A DNA stretch of 64,000 bases from an uncultured bacterium. GTDB lineage: Bacteria; Bacteroidota; Bacteroidia; Flavobacteriales; Flavobacteriaceae. The position numbers were made by a program, and so were the translations under genes. Where the stretch lies: NCBI GenBank assembly GCA_963974305.1, contig CAXBCS010000005.1:1537-65536 (forward strand), in the 5' to 3' direction. Below are positions 272 to 20,709 of the stretch, in pieces. Numbering within the stretch: position 1 is the stretch's first letter; every line of letters begins with the position of its first letter. Under the pieces are notes generated by a model that searched no databases, had not been told where the DNA came from, and saw only the letters and a program-made list of their open reading frames with translations.

Positions 272-1023
272 TACAAGAAACAGAAACAATCATTCACCTA
301 GCGGCACAATACCTCGCCGCAGCCAATATTAGTTTTGTACCAAAAGAAGAAGACGATAGTCATACAAATTTCGGATTTGATGTGGAGCAATTGCGCTTGC
401 TCTCTCACCCACTTTCGTCTAAAGGAGATCAACTAGCACTTAATTACAAGGACTTTTCATTAGAATGGATCTCTTTTAATGCTCATAACTCTTACCCTTT
501 GGAGGGCAAAACACATGCTCAAGCTCTCGAATGGCTACAGCAAATGTCTTTAACCACTATTGCAAAGCCATATAGGTATAAATTTCACTATGAGTTGCCA
601 TATAGCATTCATAGTGATTACACCTTTCATATTGACAACTCAGCCGACTTAAAAACACTTGCTAATTTGAGAATCCTTACTCAAAAGGGGCTTGAGGAAA
701 TAATAAAGACGTTCCATTTGAAAGACAGCATCAGGATATGGCCGCATCATTTTGACACAGGGATATACGCGCCTTTACCGGAAACTTCAGATGTTATGGT
801 AGGCCTTGGTCTTGCAATTCCAGATACAGTATCCGATGGACATTATTTTTATGCAAGTGGCTATAAAAATGGAAATCAGATGGACCCTACATCTTTCAAT
901 CGGCTATCGGTTGGAAAATGGGTTTCCGACACTTTTAAAGGAGGAGTTTTACCCGCAGAAAACAGTAACCAAGACCAGTTAGTAAAATTCTTTACAGAGG
1001 CGTTAAACCAACTTAAGGATTAA
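268..1023 (+). CDS. hypothetical protein, 251 aa
   Basis: Long ORF overlapping the upstream stop by 4 nt; WPHHFDTG motif; no function recognised. Confidence 0.7.
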   Translation: MIQETETIIHLAAQYLAAANISFVPKEEDDSHTNFGFDVEQLRLLSHPLSSKGDQLALNYKDFSLEWISFNAHNSYPLEGKTHAQALEWLQQMSLTTIAKPYRYKFHYELPYSIHSDYTFHIDNSADLKTLANLRILTQKGLEEIIKTFHLKDSIRIWPHHFDTGIYAPLPETSDVMVGLGLAIPDTVSDGHYFYASGYKNGNQMDPTSFNRLSVGKWVSDTFKGGVLPAENSNQDQLVKFFTEALNQLKD

Positions 1024-15147: not shown

Positions 15148-16272
15148 ATGATCCCATTTAATGTCCCTTTCGCATCTGGAGATGAATTGACACAGATTTC
15201 GGCGGCAATAGCCGATAATAAGCTCTCTGGTAATGGACATTTTACAAAAAAATGTAAAGCCCTTTTCAAAGAAAGGTATGGTTTTGATAATAGCTTTTTA
15301 ACCACGAGTTGCACAGCGGCTATTCAGATGGTTGCAATAGCCATGGACTTAGAAGCTGGAGATGAAATTATACTTCCTTCTTATACCTTTAGTTCTACAC
15401 CAAATCCCTTCTTGATTGCAGGAGCCACAGTAAAATTTGCCGATTCAGAACCTGATCATCCTAACGTTTCTTTAAAGTCTATAGCTTCTCTTATTACCCC
15501 AAAAACAAAGGCTGTCATGGTGGTGCATTATGGCGGATACGCTTGCGATATCATAGGTATCAAGGCATTGTGTGACCAACATGGTTTGCTTTTAATAGAG
15601 GATGCTGCTCAATGCATACAGGGCTTTTACCAAGGGAAACCTTTAGGGAGTTTTGGAGACTTTTCGGTATTTTCTTTTCACGAAACCAAGAATATCCACT
15701 GTGGAGAAGGCGGACTGCTTGTTGTCAACAATCTGGATTATGTAAATAAAGCAGAGACCATTTGGAACTACGGTACAAATAAGAAAGCTTTTTTAAGCGG
15801 GGAAGTCGACAGCTATGAATGGACAGGATTAGGACTTTCATTTTGTCTTTCAGAGATCAATGCTGCTTATTTATACGCCCAATTACAGCATGTTGAAAAA
15901 GTTACACAAACACGAAAATCACTTTGGGAATCCTACTTTCGAGCTTTGAAACCTTTAGAGAAATTAGGGCTACTCAAACTCCCACAAATTAAGGGAGAAG
16001 ATAGCAGTTATCATACCTTTTATGTGTGTACGCTTTCGCGAAAGCGGTATCTCGACCTTCAAAAACATTTACTCACTAATTTTGTTTTGGCTGTACAGCA
16101 CTACTACCCTTTACATGAAAGTGCCTTTGCTAAAGCAGAAGGCCTCAGTGCAGATTTACCCAATGCTAGTTATTTTGGAGATAACCTTCTGCGATTACCA
16201 TTGTATGAAGGCTTAACAACAACTCAAGTTGACCAAATTACCAAGCTTATTTTAGATTTCTACAAAAACTAG
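15148..16272 (+). CDS. DegT/DnrJ family sugar aminotransferase, WecE/RffA-like
   Basis: TTSCTAA, PSYTF.ST.N.F, VHYGGYAC, EDAAQ, FSFHETKN..CGEGG, AAYLYAQL. Confidence 0.88.
   Translation: MIPFNVPFASGDELTQISAAIADNKLSGNGHFTKKCKALFKERYGFDNSFLTTSCTAAIQMVAIAMDLEAGDEIILPSYTFSSTPNPFLIAGATVKFADSEPDHPNVSLKSIASLITPKTKAVMVVHYGGYACDIIGIKALCDQHGLLLIEDAAQCIQGFYQGKPLGSFGDFSVFSFHETKNIHCGEGGLLVVNNLDYVNKAETIWNYGTNKKAFLSGEVDSYEWTGLGLSFCLSEINAAYLYAQLQHVEKVTQTRKSLWESYFRALKPLEKLGLLKLPQIKGEDSSYHTFYVCTLSRKRYLDLQKHLLTNFVLAVQHYYPLHESAFAKAEGLSADLPNASYFGDNLLRLPLYEGLTTTQVDQITKLILDFYKN
16031..16046. repeat. palindrome CGCTTTCGCGAAAGCG, copy 4
   Basis: Inside the WecE-like gene, read as LSRKR. Confidence 0.95.
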
Positions 16273-17015
16273 TTTCCTTTCAAAGCATTGAGAAAGTCGG
16301 GACGTTTATTTCTAGAAACTGGCACCTTATTATTTTCTGAGAGTAGTACATAGCCCTCATTGAGGTAACGTTCTATGTGGTCAAGATTAATGAGATGGGA
16401 TTTATGTACATGATAGAAAAGACTGTGGTCAAGCATTTTTGTAAAATGCCCAATACTACTGGAACTCAGTAACGGTTTTCCATTTTGAATGATAATCTTG
16501 GTATATCCATCTACTCCTTCGCAACGAATAATATCTGCAATGGTGATAAATTCTAGGCCATCTTGTGTAGGCACAACGATTTTCTTTTTCTGAAATGTCT
16601 GTACGCCCATATTGGCGATGAGCTGCTTGTTCTTTTTTAGAGCGTCTTTAGACTCGACATTCTGAATGGCTTTGGAAACCGTTTGAATGAGATCTTCGCG
16701 ATCTAAGGGTTTGACGAGATAACCAATAGCACAATGCCGAATAGCTTCCAAAGCATAAGAATCGAAAGCGGTGGCAAAAATGATTTCAAAATCAGGCGTA
16801 CCCACTTGGGATAGTAGTTCGAAACCATTCATTTCTGGCATTGCAATATCCAAGAATACCAAATCTGGCTTAAGGGATTGGATCAATTCAATCGCTTCAT
16901 GAGGATCTTGTGATTGTGCAATAATCTCCAATTCGGGACAGTACCGCTCTAATTTGCTTTGTAGAATGGCTAATGCCTTAGGTTCATCATCTACTATTAT
17001 TGTCCTAATCTTCAT
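16269..17015 (-). CDS. LytTR-family response regulator
   Basis: IIVDDE, LVFLDIAMP, FATAF, YLVKP receiver; IIRCEG..GYT and VHKSHLINL LytTR domain. Confidence 0.95.
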   Translation of the reverse strand: MKIRTIIVDDEPKALAILQSKLERYCPELEIIAQSQDPHEAIELIQSLKPDLVFLDIAMPEMNGFELLSQVGTPDFEIIFATAFDSYALEAIRHCAIGYLVKPLDREDLIQTVSKAIQNVESKDALKKNKQLIANMGVQTFQKKKIVVPTQDGLEFITIADIIRCEGVDGYTKIIIQNGKPLLSSSSIGHFTKMLDHSLFYHVHKSHLINLDHIERYLNEGYVLLSENNKVPVSRNKRPDFLNALKGN

Positions 17016-17802
17016 GATCTATCATACTATTAAACGTAAGGTGTACTGCTGTCCCTACTGGATTTTGTAATTCCTCAACACTATGTTCAATATGCCATTT
17101 TCCATTATATTCTAATAATTTAAGGCGGTCCTGCAATACAGTAGTCGATCTATTTTCGATGGTCTTTGTGGTTTTCTTAAAAAGCTCTTTGGCAGCCGTA
17201 AGACCTATTCCATCATCAATGACAGAGACTTGGAAGCCATCATCTTCTAGTGCCCTAAACTCAACCTTAATTGTTCCTGATCCTTTTTTGTGAAAGATGC
17301 CATGATTGACGGCATTTTCTACTAAGGGTTGTAATAACATCGAAGGGATTTCTGTGTCATCTTCCAAAGCATCATCAACGGTTATCTCATAATGAAGCCT
17401 ATCTTCAAAACGCAGTTTTTCAATGGATAAATAGTTATCAAGAAGATTCACTTCCTCCTCAAGTGTAATCGTTTGCTTACGCGAAAGTTCAAAAAAGGCT
17501 CTGATCAATTTAGAGAATTTCGAGAGATATTCTTCAGACTGCTCCACTTCATTACGTTGAATATAATATTGAATCGCATTGAGGGAATTATGCACAAAAT
17601 GCGGATTCATTTGTAAGCGTAGCGCCTGAAGTTCTATCGCATGCATTTGTTGTTGGATTGCTAATTTATCTTCATAGTTTTGAGTAATGAGTGAGTTACG
17701 CTTTTTGACAAAAACTGTAAAAACAAAAATAAGAGCAACCACCATTATTGCCAAAACAATCCCTATTCCCACCACTACAATGCCTATTTTTTCATCGGAC
17801 AT
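17005..17802 (-). CDS. LytS/YehU-type histidine kinase, single TM, no own sensor domain
   Basis: LRLQMNPHFVHNSLN H-box, LLQPLVENAVNHG, DDGIG; only one N-terminal TM helix. Confidence 0.93.
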   Translation of the reverse strand: MSDEKIGIVVVGIGIVLAIMVVALIFVFTVFVKKRNSLITQNYEDKLAIQQQMHAIELQALRLQMNPHFVHNSLNAIQYYIQRNEVEQSEEYLSKFSKLIRAFFELSRKQTITLEEEVNLLDNYLSIEKLRFEDRLHYEITVDDALEDDTEIPSMLLQPLVENAVNHGIFHKKGSGTIKVEFRALEDDGFQVSVIDDGIGLTAAKELFKKTTKTIENRSTTVLQDRLKLLEYNGKWHIEHSVEELQNPVGTAVHLTFNSMIDHED

Positions 17803-18398
17803 AACATCGCTTTAATAAAACATGAATACAATACTGCATTTGTAAAAAAGGTGAGGATTAATGAAATCTCACGAGTTATTGATATGTCTAATTTAATCGC
17901 CCATGATAAAGGCAGGTACCCTAAATTAAATATTAGCAGACCAATAGTAATCCAAAATTCCGCTAGTCTTAAAAACTGCACGACTTCATCTGATTTTAAT
18001 AAACGCACATAAAATCTTACCGTGAGATAAAACAGTATTATAGTACCTCCAGTTTGCGCGATTATAAGTGGCTTAGAAATATCTTCAACTATAAAACTTA
18101 TTAATAGCAGGACAAAGTATAGAACAAGAAGTCTGATTACATAAATACGCTTACTAAGCACTTCGTAAAACCACAAAATAAAAAATGAAAACATAAGAAC
18201 ATCAAAAATGGTGTAGAAGATATTGTCAATACGTCTATCATCACTAAAATATGCCCCAGTTTCAATAAGGATTACCATTGCGAAATAATACCCGAAATTC
18301 CTCAGTGATGTCTTACTAATCTGTTTGTATCTATAGATACTAACTAGCAAAGCCGTAATCACTAGAATACGAAACCCTAGAATCGCAAAATCTCCCAT
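17784..18398 (-). CDS. stand-alone 7-TM membrane protein
   Basis: 204 aa with seven hydrophobic segments; FWITIGLLIF..G..P and NAVLY motifs; overlaps the kinase start by 19 nt. Confidence 0.8.
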   Translation of the reverse strand: MGDFAILGFRILVITALLVSIYRYKQISKTSLRNFGYYFAMVILIETGAYFSDDRRIDNIFYTIFDVLMFSFFILWFYEVLSKRIYVIRLLVLYFVLLLISFIVEDISKPLIIAQTGGTIILFYLTVRFYVRLLKSDEVVQFLRLAEFWITIGLLIFNLGYLPLSWAIKLDISITREISLILTFFTNAVLYSCFIKAMLCPMKK

Positions 18399-18418
18399 AA
18401 TTACTAATCTTATATAAG

Positions 18419-18949
18419 TTATGGTCTTCCGTCATATCCTGGTGGAGGTGGCGGCGGTGGATCCTTTTTAGGATCAGTATTACCTAATGGATCCATACGA
18501 TCGTAGTTGGTTGTAGGTAGAAATTCTTCGTTAATCGGCACATATATTGGATCAATTTCTGACTCAGGCTCAACTATTTGAGCAGCTTTAAAAAATACAG
18601 TCGATTTAGGTGTATTTGTATCATCAGGTACTGCAGCAAAATATACAATCATTGCTGTTTTATCAATATTATTCTCTTTTTGATATTCCTTGATTTTGAT
18701 GAGATACTTCTGCAAGTCCTCTATATCAGTAACAACAGCCCCAATATTATCAGCAGATTCATTGGCCGGATATTGACTCTCAAGACCAATATTGATAAAT
18801 TGATGTTGATTTTCTATGAATAATGACTGCATAGAAGCTGCTTCTTCATCAGAAATAATATTCTCAGGATCCCCAGATGGGCAATCACAACAGGAAGTCA
18901 TAAATAGTCCGACTGCGCAGAGCAAGAGTATTCGTTTTAAATTTTTCAT
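18419..18949 (-). CDS. lipoprotein with poly-proline C-terminal tail
   Basis: MKNLKRILLLCAVGLFMTSC lipobox; VYFAA and STVFF core; ends DPKKDPPPPPPPGYDGRP. Confidence 0.8.
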   Translation of the reverse strand: MKNLKRILLLCAVGLFMTSCCDCPSGDPENIISDEEAASMQSLFIENQHQFINIGLESQYPANESADNIGAVVTDIEDLQKYLIKIKEYQKENNIDKTAMIVYFAAVPDDTNTPKSTVFFKAAQIVEPESEIDPIYVPINEEFLPTTNYDRMDPLGNTDPKKDPPPPPPPGYDGRP

Positions 18950-19026
18950 TAGAATGGTTTTAAATGTTAATGTAAAATACAATTAAATAAATTGTTGCAT
19001 TCGTTATATCCCAGTATCACAATAAT

Positions 19027-19539
19027 CTAGGATCTTGTTACTGGCTTAATAATAAGCTTAATTTTTCCTATAACACTAGGATCAAATTTTTCATCTCTTT
19101 TAGAATTTTGATTGGCAACTTCGACTGTGATAACCTTTCCCACGAGTTTTGTGTTTTCATCATTGGATGAATTTTGGTCAAGTTTAGCAGTTGACTTTTT
19201 AGTTGTATCAAGCTTCTGTTGATCGGCTCGATCTTTAAAATTAATACCTGCCTTAATGGAATTATCAACTTTCATATCGGCCACTTTCTTAGAAAAGGGA
19301 ACATCAATATGCGTTTTTAATCGCTTATTTACTTCCGATACCTGATTTTCCAAATCTGAAGAATTTATTTCTTTTTCTAAAGTACCAAATACCAGTGGAA
19401 TCTCAATTTCGGCAGCTTCTATAGCCAATTGGATTTGCGAATGTTCATCAGTTTCAATTTCGTTTTGTAAATAAGTATTAAAGTCAAAACTTTTTAAAAC
19501 TTCATACTGTACCATTGATATAAAATAGGATAATTCCAT
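19027..19539 (-). CDS. hypothetical cytoplasmic protein (N-terminal helix plus terminal beta strands, Trypco/DUF2589-like layout)
   Basis: MELSYFISMVQYEVLKS helix, IQLAIEAAEIEIPL strand, GKIKLIIKP C-terminal strand; family link is a resemblance only. Confidence 0.65.
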   Translation of the reverse strand: MELSYFISMVQYEVLKSFDFNTYLQNEIETDEHSQIQLAIEAAEIEIPLVFGTLEKEINSSDLENQVSEVNKRLKTHIDVPFSKKVADMKVDNSIKAGINFKDRADQQKLDTTKKSTAKLDQNSSNDENTKLVGKVITVEVANQNSKRDEKFDPSVIGKIKLIIKPVTRS

Positions 19540-19558
19540 AAGACAAAATATTTTAAGA

Positions 19559-20386
19559 TTAAACTTCTATTGACGGAAAAGAACTTGTTCTAAAATTGAT
19601 TTTCACTCCTCCAATAATGTCTGCACTCATATTAACTGCAGCAGTCGATTTCTCGTTTACTACCTTGACTCGCACTCGACTCGAAGTATAGCCTCCACTT
19701 ACGTTGGCCCTTCCCCAGCCCCATCGCGCTGAAGCTGATCCTTAAACTCCCCATTTATTGGATTTTGAGTCAATATCATAAGTTCTGCTTTCGGTAAAAT
19801 CAGTTGAATCAATATGAAAAACAAGTTTGGTTTCAACGAGACCATTTGTTATCTCAACCTTTTGCATTCCAAGTTTTAAAATGGTCACGAGCATATTATA
19901 ACTCTCTGATGCAGATTGTGATATTTTTTCAAGTACGAATTTTTGAAGATCCAATTTTGAAATTTTCTTTGCTGAAGTTCCAGTAATTTTTGCTTTCAGA
20001 TCTACTTGATTATTGCCCTCAGCAATAGTTACGTTTTGAAAATGAGATTGCATAGCCTCAATATCTTCGTCTACAAGATTCACATTAGCTCCAGTACCTA
20101 AAGTCAGCCCTAAAACTTCCTCTATGTAATTGTCTAACGAATCCTTATCCTCGGTATTAAGCGCATCAAAGTCGGTTGAACTAATTCCTGTAACCTCCTT
20201 TTGATATTCAATAAGAGGTTTTGAAACTTCGGCTACGAGCTGTGAATAAGCCTTAAGTTGTTCCATAGAAGAATCAACCACAATTTTGTACACGTTCCGT
20301 ACAAGGTCTGAAGTAAAGTCTACAAAGCCAATGTTTTGTACATTTCCAAGTTGTTCCATGGCTTCATCTGCTGATGTATTTGACAT
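19559..20386 (-). pseudogene. 275-codon gene with an internal TAA; helical N-terminus and amphipathic beta-hairpin C-terminus
   Basis: ORF 19742..20386 stops at TAA 19742-19744, but the same frame continues 60 codons (GSASARWGWG...FPSIEV) to TAA 19559-19561, 19 nt before the next ATG. Confidence 0.8.
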
Positions 20387-20683
20387 AATTATTAATTTTA
20401 AAAGTGCCTACTCTATTTAACAGAGGCTTTTCGGCTTCCACCTACATGTATGCTTAATTCTTAAGGGAACATATTCAAGGAAGGAAGTGCCTTAGCACCG
20501 TGAATACAAGAGCAATAGTACTGTAAGAAGGTAAGCCCTACCATAGCCAATTCAGGAAAGGTAGCTTTGAATCTATGAATGGTAAGAGGGAGTAGATAAG
20601 GTTTTTTCTAAAGAAAGGAGATGAATATAATAGGTATGGAATCATTGGAAGGAAGCCAACTTACCCAAATTGTAGCCACAAAA

Positions 20684-20709
20684 AAACCCGATACAGCTGT
20701 ATCGGGTTT
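20684..20709 (-). terminator. nqr operon terminator
   Basis: Perfect palindrome AAACCCGATACAGCTGTATCGGGTTT, with a T run on the minus strand after it. Confidence 0.75.

Follow-up and report, generated by a model that had tools for sequence, protein, structure and literature searches.

We analysed a 64,000-nucleotide stretch of DNA from an uncultured bacterium of the family Flavobacteriaceae (assembly GCA_963974305.1, contig CAXBCS010000005.1, positions 1,537 to 65,536 of the forward strand), referred to here as the window. The analysis concerns two adjacent genes, A and B, which an earlier, sequence-only reading of the same DNA had described as encoding a pore-former-like protein and its partner. 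Gene A belongs to an undescribed family and carries an in-frame stop codon in the window. The features of the two genes are listed below by window position; other A-B loci and individual proteins are cited by our own labels (L001, P0002 and the like).

19559..20386, minus strand: gene A, a 275-codon frame with an in-frame TAA at codon 215 and its final stop at 19559-19561
19742..19744, minus strand: the in-frame TAA, codon 215 of gene A, which is CAA (Gln) in four near-identical metagenome alleles
19676..19801, minus strand: variable loop of A (residues 196-237), Gly/Ser/Trp-rich and cationic, with a predicted local distance difference test score (pLDDT) below 50; its composition was determined over 123 relatives
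19688-19753, minus strand: the hairpin proposed in the sequence-only reading (W212-Y233), inside the variable loop, assessed by its beta hydrophobic moment
19592..19633, minus strand: conserved C-terminal strand of A (residues 252-265, DIIG-V-INF), downstream of the in-frame stop and paired with residues 182-195 in the structural model
19027..19539, minus strand: gene B, encoding the 170-residue partner, directly downstream of A in 15 loci

The open reading frame at 19742..20386 (minus strand) encodes the first 214 residues of A and ends with ...NKWGV at the TAA. Beyond the TAA the frame remains open for 60 further codons, which encode a protein-like Ser/Gly/Trp segment and the GGVKINFRTSSFP motif. 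Read through the TAA, A is 275 residues long and contains every segment quoted in the sequence-only reading, on the minus strand and where that reading had placed them. The reading had also treated the larger protein as a repaired 275-residue product, and such a protein exists elsewhere: P0002, intact and 99% identical to read-through A, is encoded on four metagenome contigs, downstream of nqrF, in the same place as gene A of the window. The window gene differs from these four copies at 4 of 825 nucleotides (99.5% identity), and one of the differences is the C-to-T change that converts CAA (Gln215) to TAA. In the alignment, the column of the TAA holds a sense codon in all 33 closer homologues, and homologues of 260-330 residues align with A over its full length. 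The genome from which the window derives has a single copy of the gene, flagged '1 TAA'. The simplest reading of these sequences is a recent C-to-T nonsense mutation or an assembly error rather than recoding. Programmed read-through or recoding of the TAA, by which full-length A would still be made, would fit the 60 open codons that follow; however, CAA stands at this position in the four near-identical alleles, none of the homologues has a stop there, and TAA serves as an ordinary stop in other genes of the window (translation table 11). We rejected this explanation on the strength of the CAA alleles and the sense codons in homologues, and regard it as extremely improbable. In the truncated protein most of the Gly-rich loop would be missing, as would the C-terminal strands, which are the best conserved, and because the stop removes these parts the window copy of A-B is probably inactivated and non-functional, which limits its own value.

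The start of B lies 19 nucleotides after the final stop of A. At all loci examined a second subunit is encoded 1-38 nucleotides after A, B at some loci and an A paralogue at others. In 15 loci from Bacteroidota, Alphaproteobacteria and Bacillota the gene after A encodes a B-type protein (124-172 residues); a naturally intact pair is that of Aequorivita sublithincola DSM 14238 (Aeqsu_2558 and the gene downstream of it). Paralogues of A (A'), which do not have the Gly-rich loop, take this place in L057, L058, L090-L094 and L014, the last from the same genus as the window; the myxobacterial loci comprise A, a small gene and a paralogue, and in Burkholderia there are three paralogues. At the Bacteroidota locus L091 a third gene (349-816, minus strand) encodes a B-like protein of 155 residues beside A and an A paralogue, with an expect value (E) of 3e-4 to the N-terminus of the B profile, which suggests that both types of second subunit, A' and B, can occur together. 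Across the A loci examined, no further gene is conserved. The sequence-only reading had taken the two genes for a pair, and their joint conservation bears this out: A-B is a self-contained two-subunit cassette. The tight spacing suggests coupled translation and a stoichiometric complex.

In B, the N-terminal segment and the C-terminus are conserved, the latter ending in the motif IGKIKL-IKPV, and the linker between them is rich in Lys, Ser and Asn. Its earlier description as a helix with two terminal strands may be right, and is supported only by the conservation pattern of 19 B sequences. We do not claim B as a paralogue of A, because the profile alignments (hhalign) gave weak local matches, with the C-terminus of one aligned to the C-terminus of the other at a probability below 2%. 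As the sequence-only reading had stated, neither protein has a signal peptide. The A family also has no membrane helix, the most hydrophobic 19-residue stretch of its members scoring 0.9-1.4 against a Kyte-Doolittle threshold of 1.6. In B neither a signal peptide nor a membrane helix was seen on reading the sequence.

A word-indexed search retrieved 35 relatives of A with lengths of 194-343 residues, most of them 267-333, and an exhaustive profile search yielded 1264 representative clusters (50% identity) at E <= 0.001, 113 of them at E <= 1e-30. The family spans at least five phyla (Bacteroidota, Bacillota, Pseudomonadota, Myxococcota and Acidobacteriota); records that carry a name belong to Aequorivita, Flavobacterium, Erythrobacter, Metabacillus, Syntrophomonadaceae, Sorangium, Polyangium, Bryobacteraceae, Thermoanaerobaculia and a Burkholderia megaplasmid. 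Within the genus of the window, A was found in 2 of the 24 other genomes sampled, and among other Bacteroidota in 5 of 300 (2%). Because this distribution is patchy yet covers several phyla, A is, judged by its occurrence, an accessory gene that has spread across phyla. The GC content at A-B is slightly low (33.5% versus 38-40%). Phage genomes and IMG/VR contigs contained no relatives of A, for which reason an origin in a phage lysis cassette was dropped. One metagenomic protein of 585 residues (P0127) has a Pfam RIP match at its N-terminus, exactly at the curated threshold of 21 bits, and a complete A module at residues 326-577 behind this toxin-type domain; the fusion was seen in this one protein only. 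The A-B cassette is common, yet its family has no name, its fold is neither solved nor matched, and no literature deals with it.

AlphaFold was run on monomers of A. The deeper of the two models, based on a 123-sequence alignment, has a mean pLDDT of 75.7 and is confident over residues 20-195. This part comprises a long N-terminal helix (residues 21-55), a small variable alpha/beta insert, a second helix (144-172) and a strand (182-195), which pairs with the strand at 252-265 to form a long, exposed two-stranded hairpin. The tip of the hairpin, residues 196-250, has a pLDDT below 50 in both models. A hairpin placed in a soluble monomer core would have spoken against the pore proposed in the sequence-only reading; since the AlphaFold monomer does not bury the segment in such a core and leaves it unmodelled at the tip, this objection does not arise. 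An unmodelled tip on an exposed hairpin is the pattern expected of a segment that needs an oligomer or a membrane in order to fold. Most of the conservation in A lies in its N-terminal helix and in the C-terminal strand module, where G259, V261 and F265 are invariant or nearly so across the aligned relatives. The conserved helix is strongly amphipathic (hydrophobic moment, mu_H, 0.60).

The loop between the two strands ranges from 25 to 73 residues over the 123 relatives, and its composition is kept while its sequence is not conserved. Compared with the part of A that is N-terminal to the loop, Gly is raised from 6.1% to 14.6%, Ser from 6.8% to 18.5% and Trp tenfold, from 0.2% to 2.1%. Acidic residues, Leu and Pro are depleted, the net charge averages +2.5, and small-xxx-Gly-xxx-small motifs occur in 93 of the 123 loops. 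The first arm of the window loop (residues 209-224) alternates significantly when compared with shuffled sequences (mu180 0.56, p ~0.015); the second arm (residues 226-237) does not (p 0.38). The amphipathic alternation described earlier is significant in one arm of a segment that AlphaFold leaves unmodelled; the Gly/Ser/aromatic character of the segment is family-wide. Judged by sequence, the loop is composed more like a segment that interacts with a membrane or depends on an oligomer than like a passive linker, which is proof of neither.

Searches of Pfam, NCBIfam, PADLOC (a library of known and candidate anti-phage defence systems) and PHROGs with A, both as halves and read through, and with B returned nothing significant. 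The E limits in hmmscan were <= 10 for read-through A, <= 1 for the halves of A, for B, for 10 B relatives and for the 34 closest A relatives, and <= 0.01 for the 123 A relatives. Over the sets of 34 and 123 A relatives and the 10 B relatives, Pfam gave only sub-threshold matches to DUF6323 and scattered noise, and no PADLOC model matched any of the 123 A members. The DUF6323 matches were found in 5 of the 123 relatives (A3 members; best E 1.2e-5); in P0098 (E 0.058), the sole member inspected, the match falls on the conserved N-terminal helix, and DUF6323 may be a distant relative of A. Sequence profiles of PDB entries matched neither A, at two alignment depths, nor B. Foldseek searches with A against the PDB (two models) and BFVD gave no match at E <= 0.001, and template modelling (TM) scores remained below 0.3. 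The top matches, an archaeal primase large subunit and a phi29-type lower collar protein, were regarded as noise (TM <0.3).

The sequence-only reading had likened the hairpin of A to those of aerolysin-, MACPF- and gasdermin-type pore formers. True homology to these proteins would draw on the Ser/Gly-rich alternating pattern alone, of which the first arm is significant. Against it stand the lack of any Pfam or PADLOC match, a best Foldseek match in the PDB of E 0.045 with a TM score below 0.3, no pore-former family among the 50 PDB matches listed for A, and the fold of the confidently modelled region, a bundle of helices that carries a small alpha/beta insert, which differs from theirs. We consider such kinship highly improbable, and by these sequence and model comparisons it is effectively excluded at the level of homology.

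The same reading had likened the layout to that of DUF2589 and Trypco domains. The comparison with the latter is a sensible lead because Pepco (Trypco1/Trypco2) is reported, on experimental grounds, to be a beta-barrel pore toxin (Evans et al. 2025, bioRxiv 10.1101/2025.11.14.688446). It is reported to form stable barrels of 9-10 subunits, which become toxic pores once an adjacent protease cleaves the C-terminus; the protease of the system tested in that work is trypsin-like and fused to Avs4 (bioRxiv 10.1101/2025.11.14.688446). The hidden Markov models (HMMs) of DUF2589 (PF11655, cut-off 23 bits) and Trypco2 (PF19631, cut-off 24.2 bits) matched neither A nor B, nor the 123 A and 10 B relatives. 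In six-frame searches of the genome of the window at E <= 10, DUF2589 hit one unrelated place on contig 8 only and Trypco2 hit nothing, and a precomputed Pfam domain of either kind was present in 0 of 51 B-family proteins. For profile comparison, DUF2589 and Trypco2 proteins (15 of the former) were collected from Bacteroidota genomes into home-made alignments, against which A, its C-terminal half, A' and B were run with hhalign. A and DUF2589 gave two short, collinear local matches rather than a full-length alignment, one pairing the two N-terminal helices (probability 7%) and the other the two hairpins (45%), neither of them significant. The match of a strand to the Trypco2 strand was short, non-significant and below 2%. 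By eye, the order of elements is alike in all four groups (A, B, DUF2589 and Trypco2). Of the proposed resemblance, the linear layout is supported and membership in these families is not. Trypco2 proteins are expected beside a trypsin-like or caspase-like protease with a sensor domain, and no protease was found near A-B in the window.

Upstream of A the window contains two further features of the cassette:

20405..20444, minus strand: DUF805b RNA leader (Rfam RF02914), 42.1 bits versus a gathering score of 35.6, 18 nucleotides upstream of the ATG of A
20684..20709, minus strand: terminator-like hairpin (11-bp stem and T run) just after nqrF, which separates the nqr operon from the A-B unit

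Because of the terminator-like hairpin upstream and the leader before the ATG, A starts its own transcription unit. The approximately 240 non-coding nucleotides between the two (window positions 20445-20683) look GC-richer than their surroundings, and the promoter of A presumably lies within this interval. In folding, neither this interval nor the 300-nucleotide leader region as a whole surpasses shuffled sequence (z 0.16).

A DUF805b or DUF805 leader is found about 20 nucleotides before A in all six independent Bacteroidota A-B loci (the window, L001, L051, L052, L055 and L056), and the near-identical L003 has one too. The positions outside the window are:

L001: 4628-4663 and 5940-5979, DUF805b leader
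L051: 6941-6976, DUF805b leader
L055: 6941-6980, DUF805b leader
L056: 4910-4944 and 6948-6982, DUF805b leader
L052: 732-799, leader of the sister model DUF805 (RF03081)

In L001 and L056 a leader also precedes the upstream gene, which encodes a vWA-motif protein in the former and a signal-less S8 peptidase in the latter. In a survey of 100 genomes of the same family, the DUF805b motif preceded many unrelated accessory genes. The leader is thus a generic Bacteroidota element, and we dropped the idea that it regulates the A family specifically. It marks A as an accessory, independently translated gene, a dedicated regulon being unlikely. Other genes behind DUF805b leaders in the same family (L059-L087) include a recurrent one for a secreted protein of about 230 residues with the motif ERG-EFLIFP-G. 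At L064, L074 and L078 the RNA leaders precede genes for short peptides that have double-glycine-type leaders and look like bacteriocin precursors, and at L083 (G344) a gene for a protein of 182 residues whose N-terminal Ser/Gly-rich alternating strands are reminiscent of the A loop.

Downstream of B lies a signalling module:

16269..18982, minus strand: four genes encoding a tethered protein, a multi-pass membrane protein, a sensor-less kinase and a LytTR regulator

No terminator was detected between B and this module. Its membrane protein (204 residues) is homologous to the one in the kinase/regulator module beside A-B at L001 (Aequorivita, E 2.5e-7) and L055 (E 0.004). Three flavobacteria thus have the same four-gene envelope-signalling module next to A-B, although the classes of kinase and regulator and the orientation differ. 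Sensor-less kinases with GerE or LytTR regulators adjoin A-B in the window, L001 and L055. A two-component system (kinase and regulator) is located near A-B in L008, an extracytoplasmic function (ECF) sigma gene beside a probable anti-sigma gene in L056, and a HAMP kinase with an ABC-2 permease in L050. Two LiaF-like proteins and one PspC protein (PspC-LiaI/LiaF-TM) are encoded next to A-B in L045. In 3 of about 18 loci (L056, Flavobacteriia; L050, Bacillota; L088, Burkholderia) the operon contains or adjoins a gene for a signal-less S8 subtilase, and L056 also encodes a TPR-CHAT protein, a CHAT protease. Many loci sit among unrelated housekeeping genes; in L101 there is an Mrr-type nuclease nearby, and in L100 HicAB.

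The Burkholderia locus (L088; Burkholderia pyrrocinia megaplasmid NZ_CP091309.1, 393494-410294) is an operon of ten genes, nine of them annotated as hypothetical. It encodes three A paralogues, each with an N-terminal extension of about 80-125 residues, together with the signal-less S8 peptidase, and adjoins genes for a cyclase-domain protein of 1151 residues and a patatin-like phospholipase. The locus has the look of an enlarged A-B system in a defence-like island.

We tentatively hypothesize that A-B is a two-subunit, self-assembling, membrane-active effector, Pepco-like in its logic, of which the window holds an inactivated copy. This hypothesis is put forward because A is always paired, because its conserved helix and strand module carries a variable loop on an exposed hairpin with an unmodelled tip, and because A has neither a signal peptide nor a membrane helix, as is the case for Pepco and the bacterial gasdermins. 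The layout matches that of DUF2589 and Trypco2/Pepco, and the weak profile matches are collinear. The envelope-signalling neighbours, the signal-less subtilases in three phyla and the CHAT protease point in the same direction, as do the patchy accessory distribution, the slightly low GC content, the inactivated copy and the fusion to a RIP domain in P0127.

In such an effector, A and B would be the subunits of a self-contained cytoplasmic cassette that form a beta-rich hetero-oligomer acting on the cytoplasmic membrane. The helical bundle of A, made up of the conserved N-terminal amphipathic helix and helix 144-172, would carry the variable alpha/beta insert, and the long beta-hairpin (182-195 with 252-265), with its Gly/Ser/Trp-rich cationic loop at the tip, would lie at the opposite end. 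We infer that the conserved strands of A may drive oligomerization and that the loops may bind to or insert into the membrane. The second subunit, obligatory in this scheme, would be B or, elsewhere, A' without the Gly-rich loop, and would serve to cap, space or regulate the assembly; the nucleating role that the sequence-only reading had suggested for the partner is pure speculation. Expression is probably under the control of envelope-sensing regulators, and in some lineages the intracellular subtilase may process the A-B proteins.

Several findings weigh against an effector of this kind. Regulator and protease neighbours are optional, neither being present in L049, L099, L100 and L101, and the LiaF and PspC neighbours would suit a protective role as well as a destructive one. 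The profile comparisons with DUF2589 and Trypco2, and of A with B, are non-significant (probabilities 0.2-45%), and significant alternation in one loop arm only means that the loop may be a disordered Ser/Gly linker. The failure of PADLOC models to match the 123 A members counts in the same direction, as does the lack of relatives in phage genomes and IMG/VR contigs. A lone nonsense codon is weak evidence of toxicity and may be an assembly error.

Two alternatives take up these points. A-B may form a soluble cytoplasmic complex that has no membrane role, in which the Gly/Ser segment serves as a flexible low-complexity linker; this would be consistent with the pLDDT below 50 for residues 196-250 in both models, with a loop that varies widely in length and sequence, with the lack of a hydrophobic segment, with a second arm that has no significant alternation, and with the unrelated housekeeping neighbours of many loci. 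However, the tenfold enrichment of Trp and the retention of aromatic and cationic residues are atypical of passive linkers, small-xxx-Gly-xxx-small motifs recur in 93 of the 123 loops, and the loop forms the end of a conserved long hairpin instead of joining two domains, so that we consider a soluble complex rather doubtful.

Alternatively, A-B may be a protective envelope-stress scaffold for damaged membranes, functionally analogous to LiaI-LiaH or PspA, that would be induced by the intramembrane-sensing systems encoded nearby and does not itself form lesions. Such a role is suggested by the company that the cassette keeps (the LiaF-like and PspC-LiaI/LiaF-TM proteins of L045, the sensor-less kinases that are paired with GerE or LytTR regulators at L001, at L055 and in the window, the two-component system near A-B in L008, and the ECF sigma and probable anti-sigma genes of L056) and by the long helices of A, including the strongly amphipathic conserved one. 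Pfam and Foldseek, on the other hand, revealed no similarity to PspA/IM30 or flotillin; a rare and patchy family, found in 2% of the sampled Bacteroidota, would be unusual for a core stress response; and the signal-less subtilase and CHAT neighbours and the toxin-type fusion suit a role in conflict better. A protective scaffold is in our view unlikely. If A-B is the membrane-active effector that we hypothesize, it would be a new module among the bacterial pore or cell-death effectors, beside gasdermins, Pepco, EACC1 and holin-like proteins, and a function would be found for one output of the sensor-less kinase systems of flavobacteria; as a protective scaffold, it would count as a new envelope-stress effector.

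Among known systems, the bacterial gasdermins resemble A in size (about 270 residues), in their cytoplasmic location, in having no signal peptide and in their patchy accessory distribution. Gasdermin operons carry subtilase or CHAT proteases, and proteases of both kinds occasionally adjoin A-B. There is no sequence or fold similarity between the two, however; the body of A is a helical bundle, unlike the gasdermin fold, and A has an obligate second subunit. LiaFSR-LiaIH and Psp systems are comparable in that A-B adjoins LiaF, PspC and sensor-less kinases with GerE or LytTR regulators and is a two-gene output unit without enzymes. They differ in that neither A nor B resembles LiaH/PspA or LiaI in Pfam and Foldseek comparisons, and A-B is also found without such neighbours.

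DUF2589 proteins share with A an N-terminal helix, a variable linker, a strand, a Ser/Gly-rich hairpin and C-terminal strands, and likewise occur as tandem paralogues or with small partners. Their hallmark motifs IGGPL...AQ and VP-L-T-PIP are, however, missing from A and B, they have no central alpha/beta domain, and a cell-wall hydrolase adjoined A-B in none of the loci examined. Pepco differs from A-B in that the Trypco2 HMM finds no match and the hhalign probability is below 1%, in its length of 117 residues as compared with the 275 of A with its large helical and alpha/beta body, and in the two subunits of A-B. The proteases near A-B are confined to a minority of loci and are subtilases, not trypsin-like, and no cleavable C-terminal tail is evident. 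Both are nevertheless small cytoplasmic proteins with neither a signal peptide nor a membrane helix, in which an N-terminal amphipathic helix is followed by beta strands and a Gly-rich hairpin, and both are sometimes adjoined by serine proteases. B repeats the Trypco2 order of motifs, from an MEL start with a helix through a strand of alternating Glu and hydrophobic residues to a C-terminal strand ending in L-x-P. As far as their sequences go, A-B, DUF2589 and Pepco are alike in layout, short of demonstrated membership in one family. We speculate, as an improbable extension of this likeness, that A with B or A' may represent a new, widespread class of bacterial two-subunit membrane-lesion or cell-death effectors that is remotely related to DUF2589 and Pepco, belongs with them to a single superfamily of barrel formers built from a helix and a Gly-rich hairpin, is switched on by envelope-sensing regulators or subtilases, and has in the nonsense allele of the window a disarmed copy.

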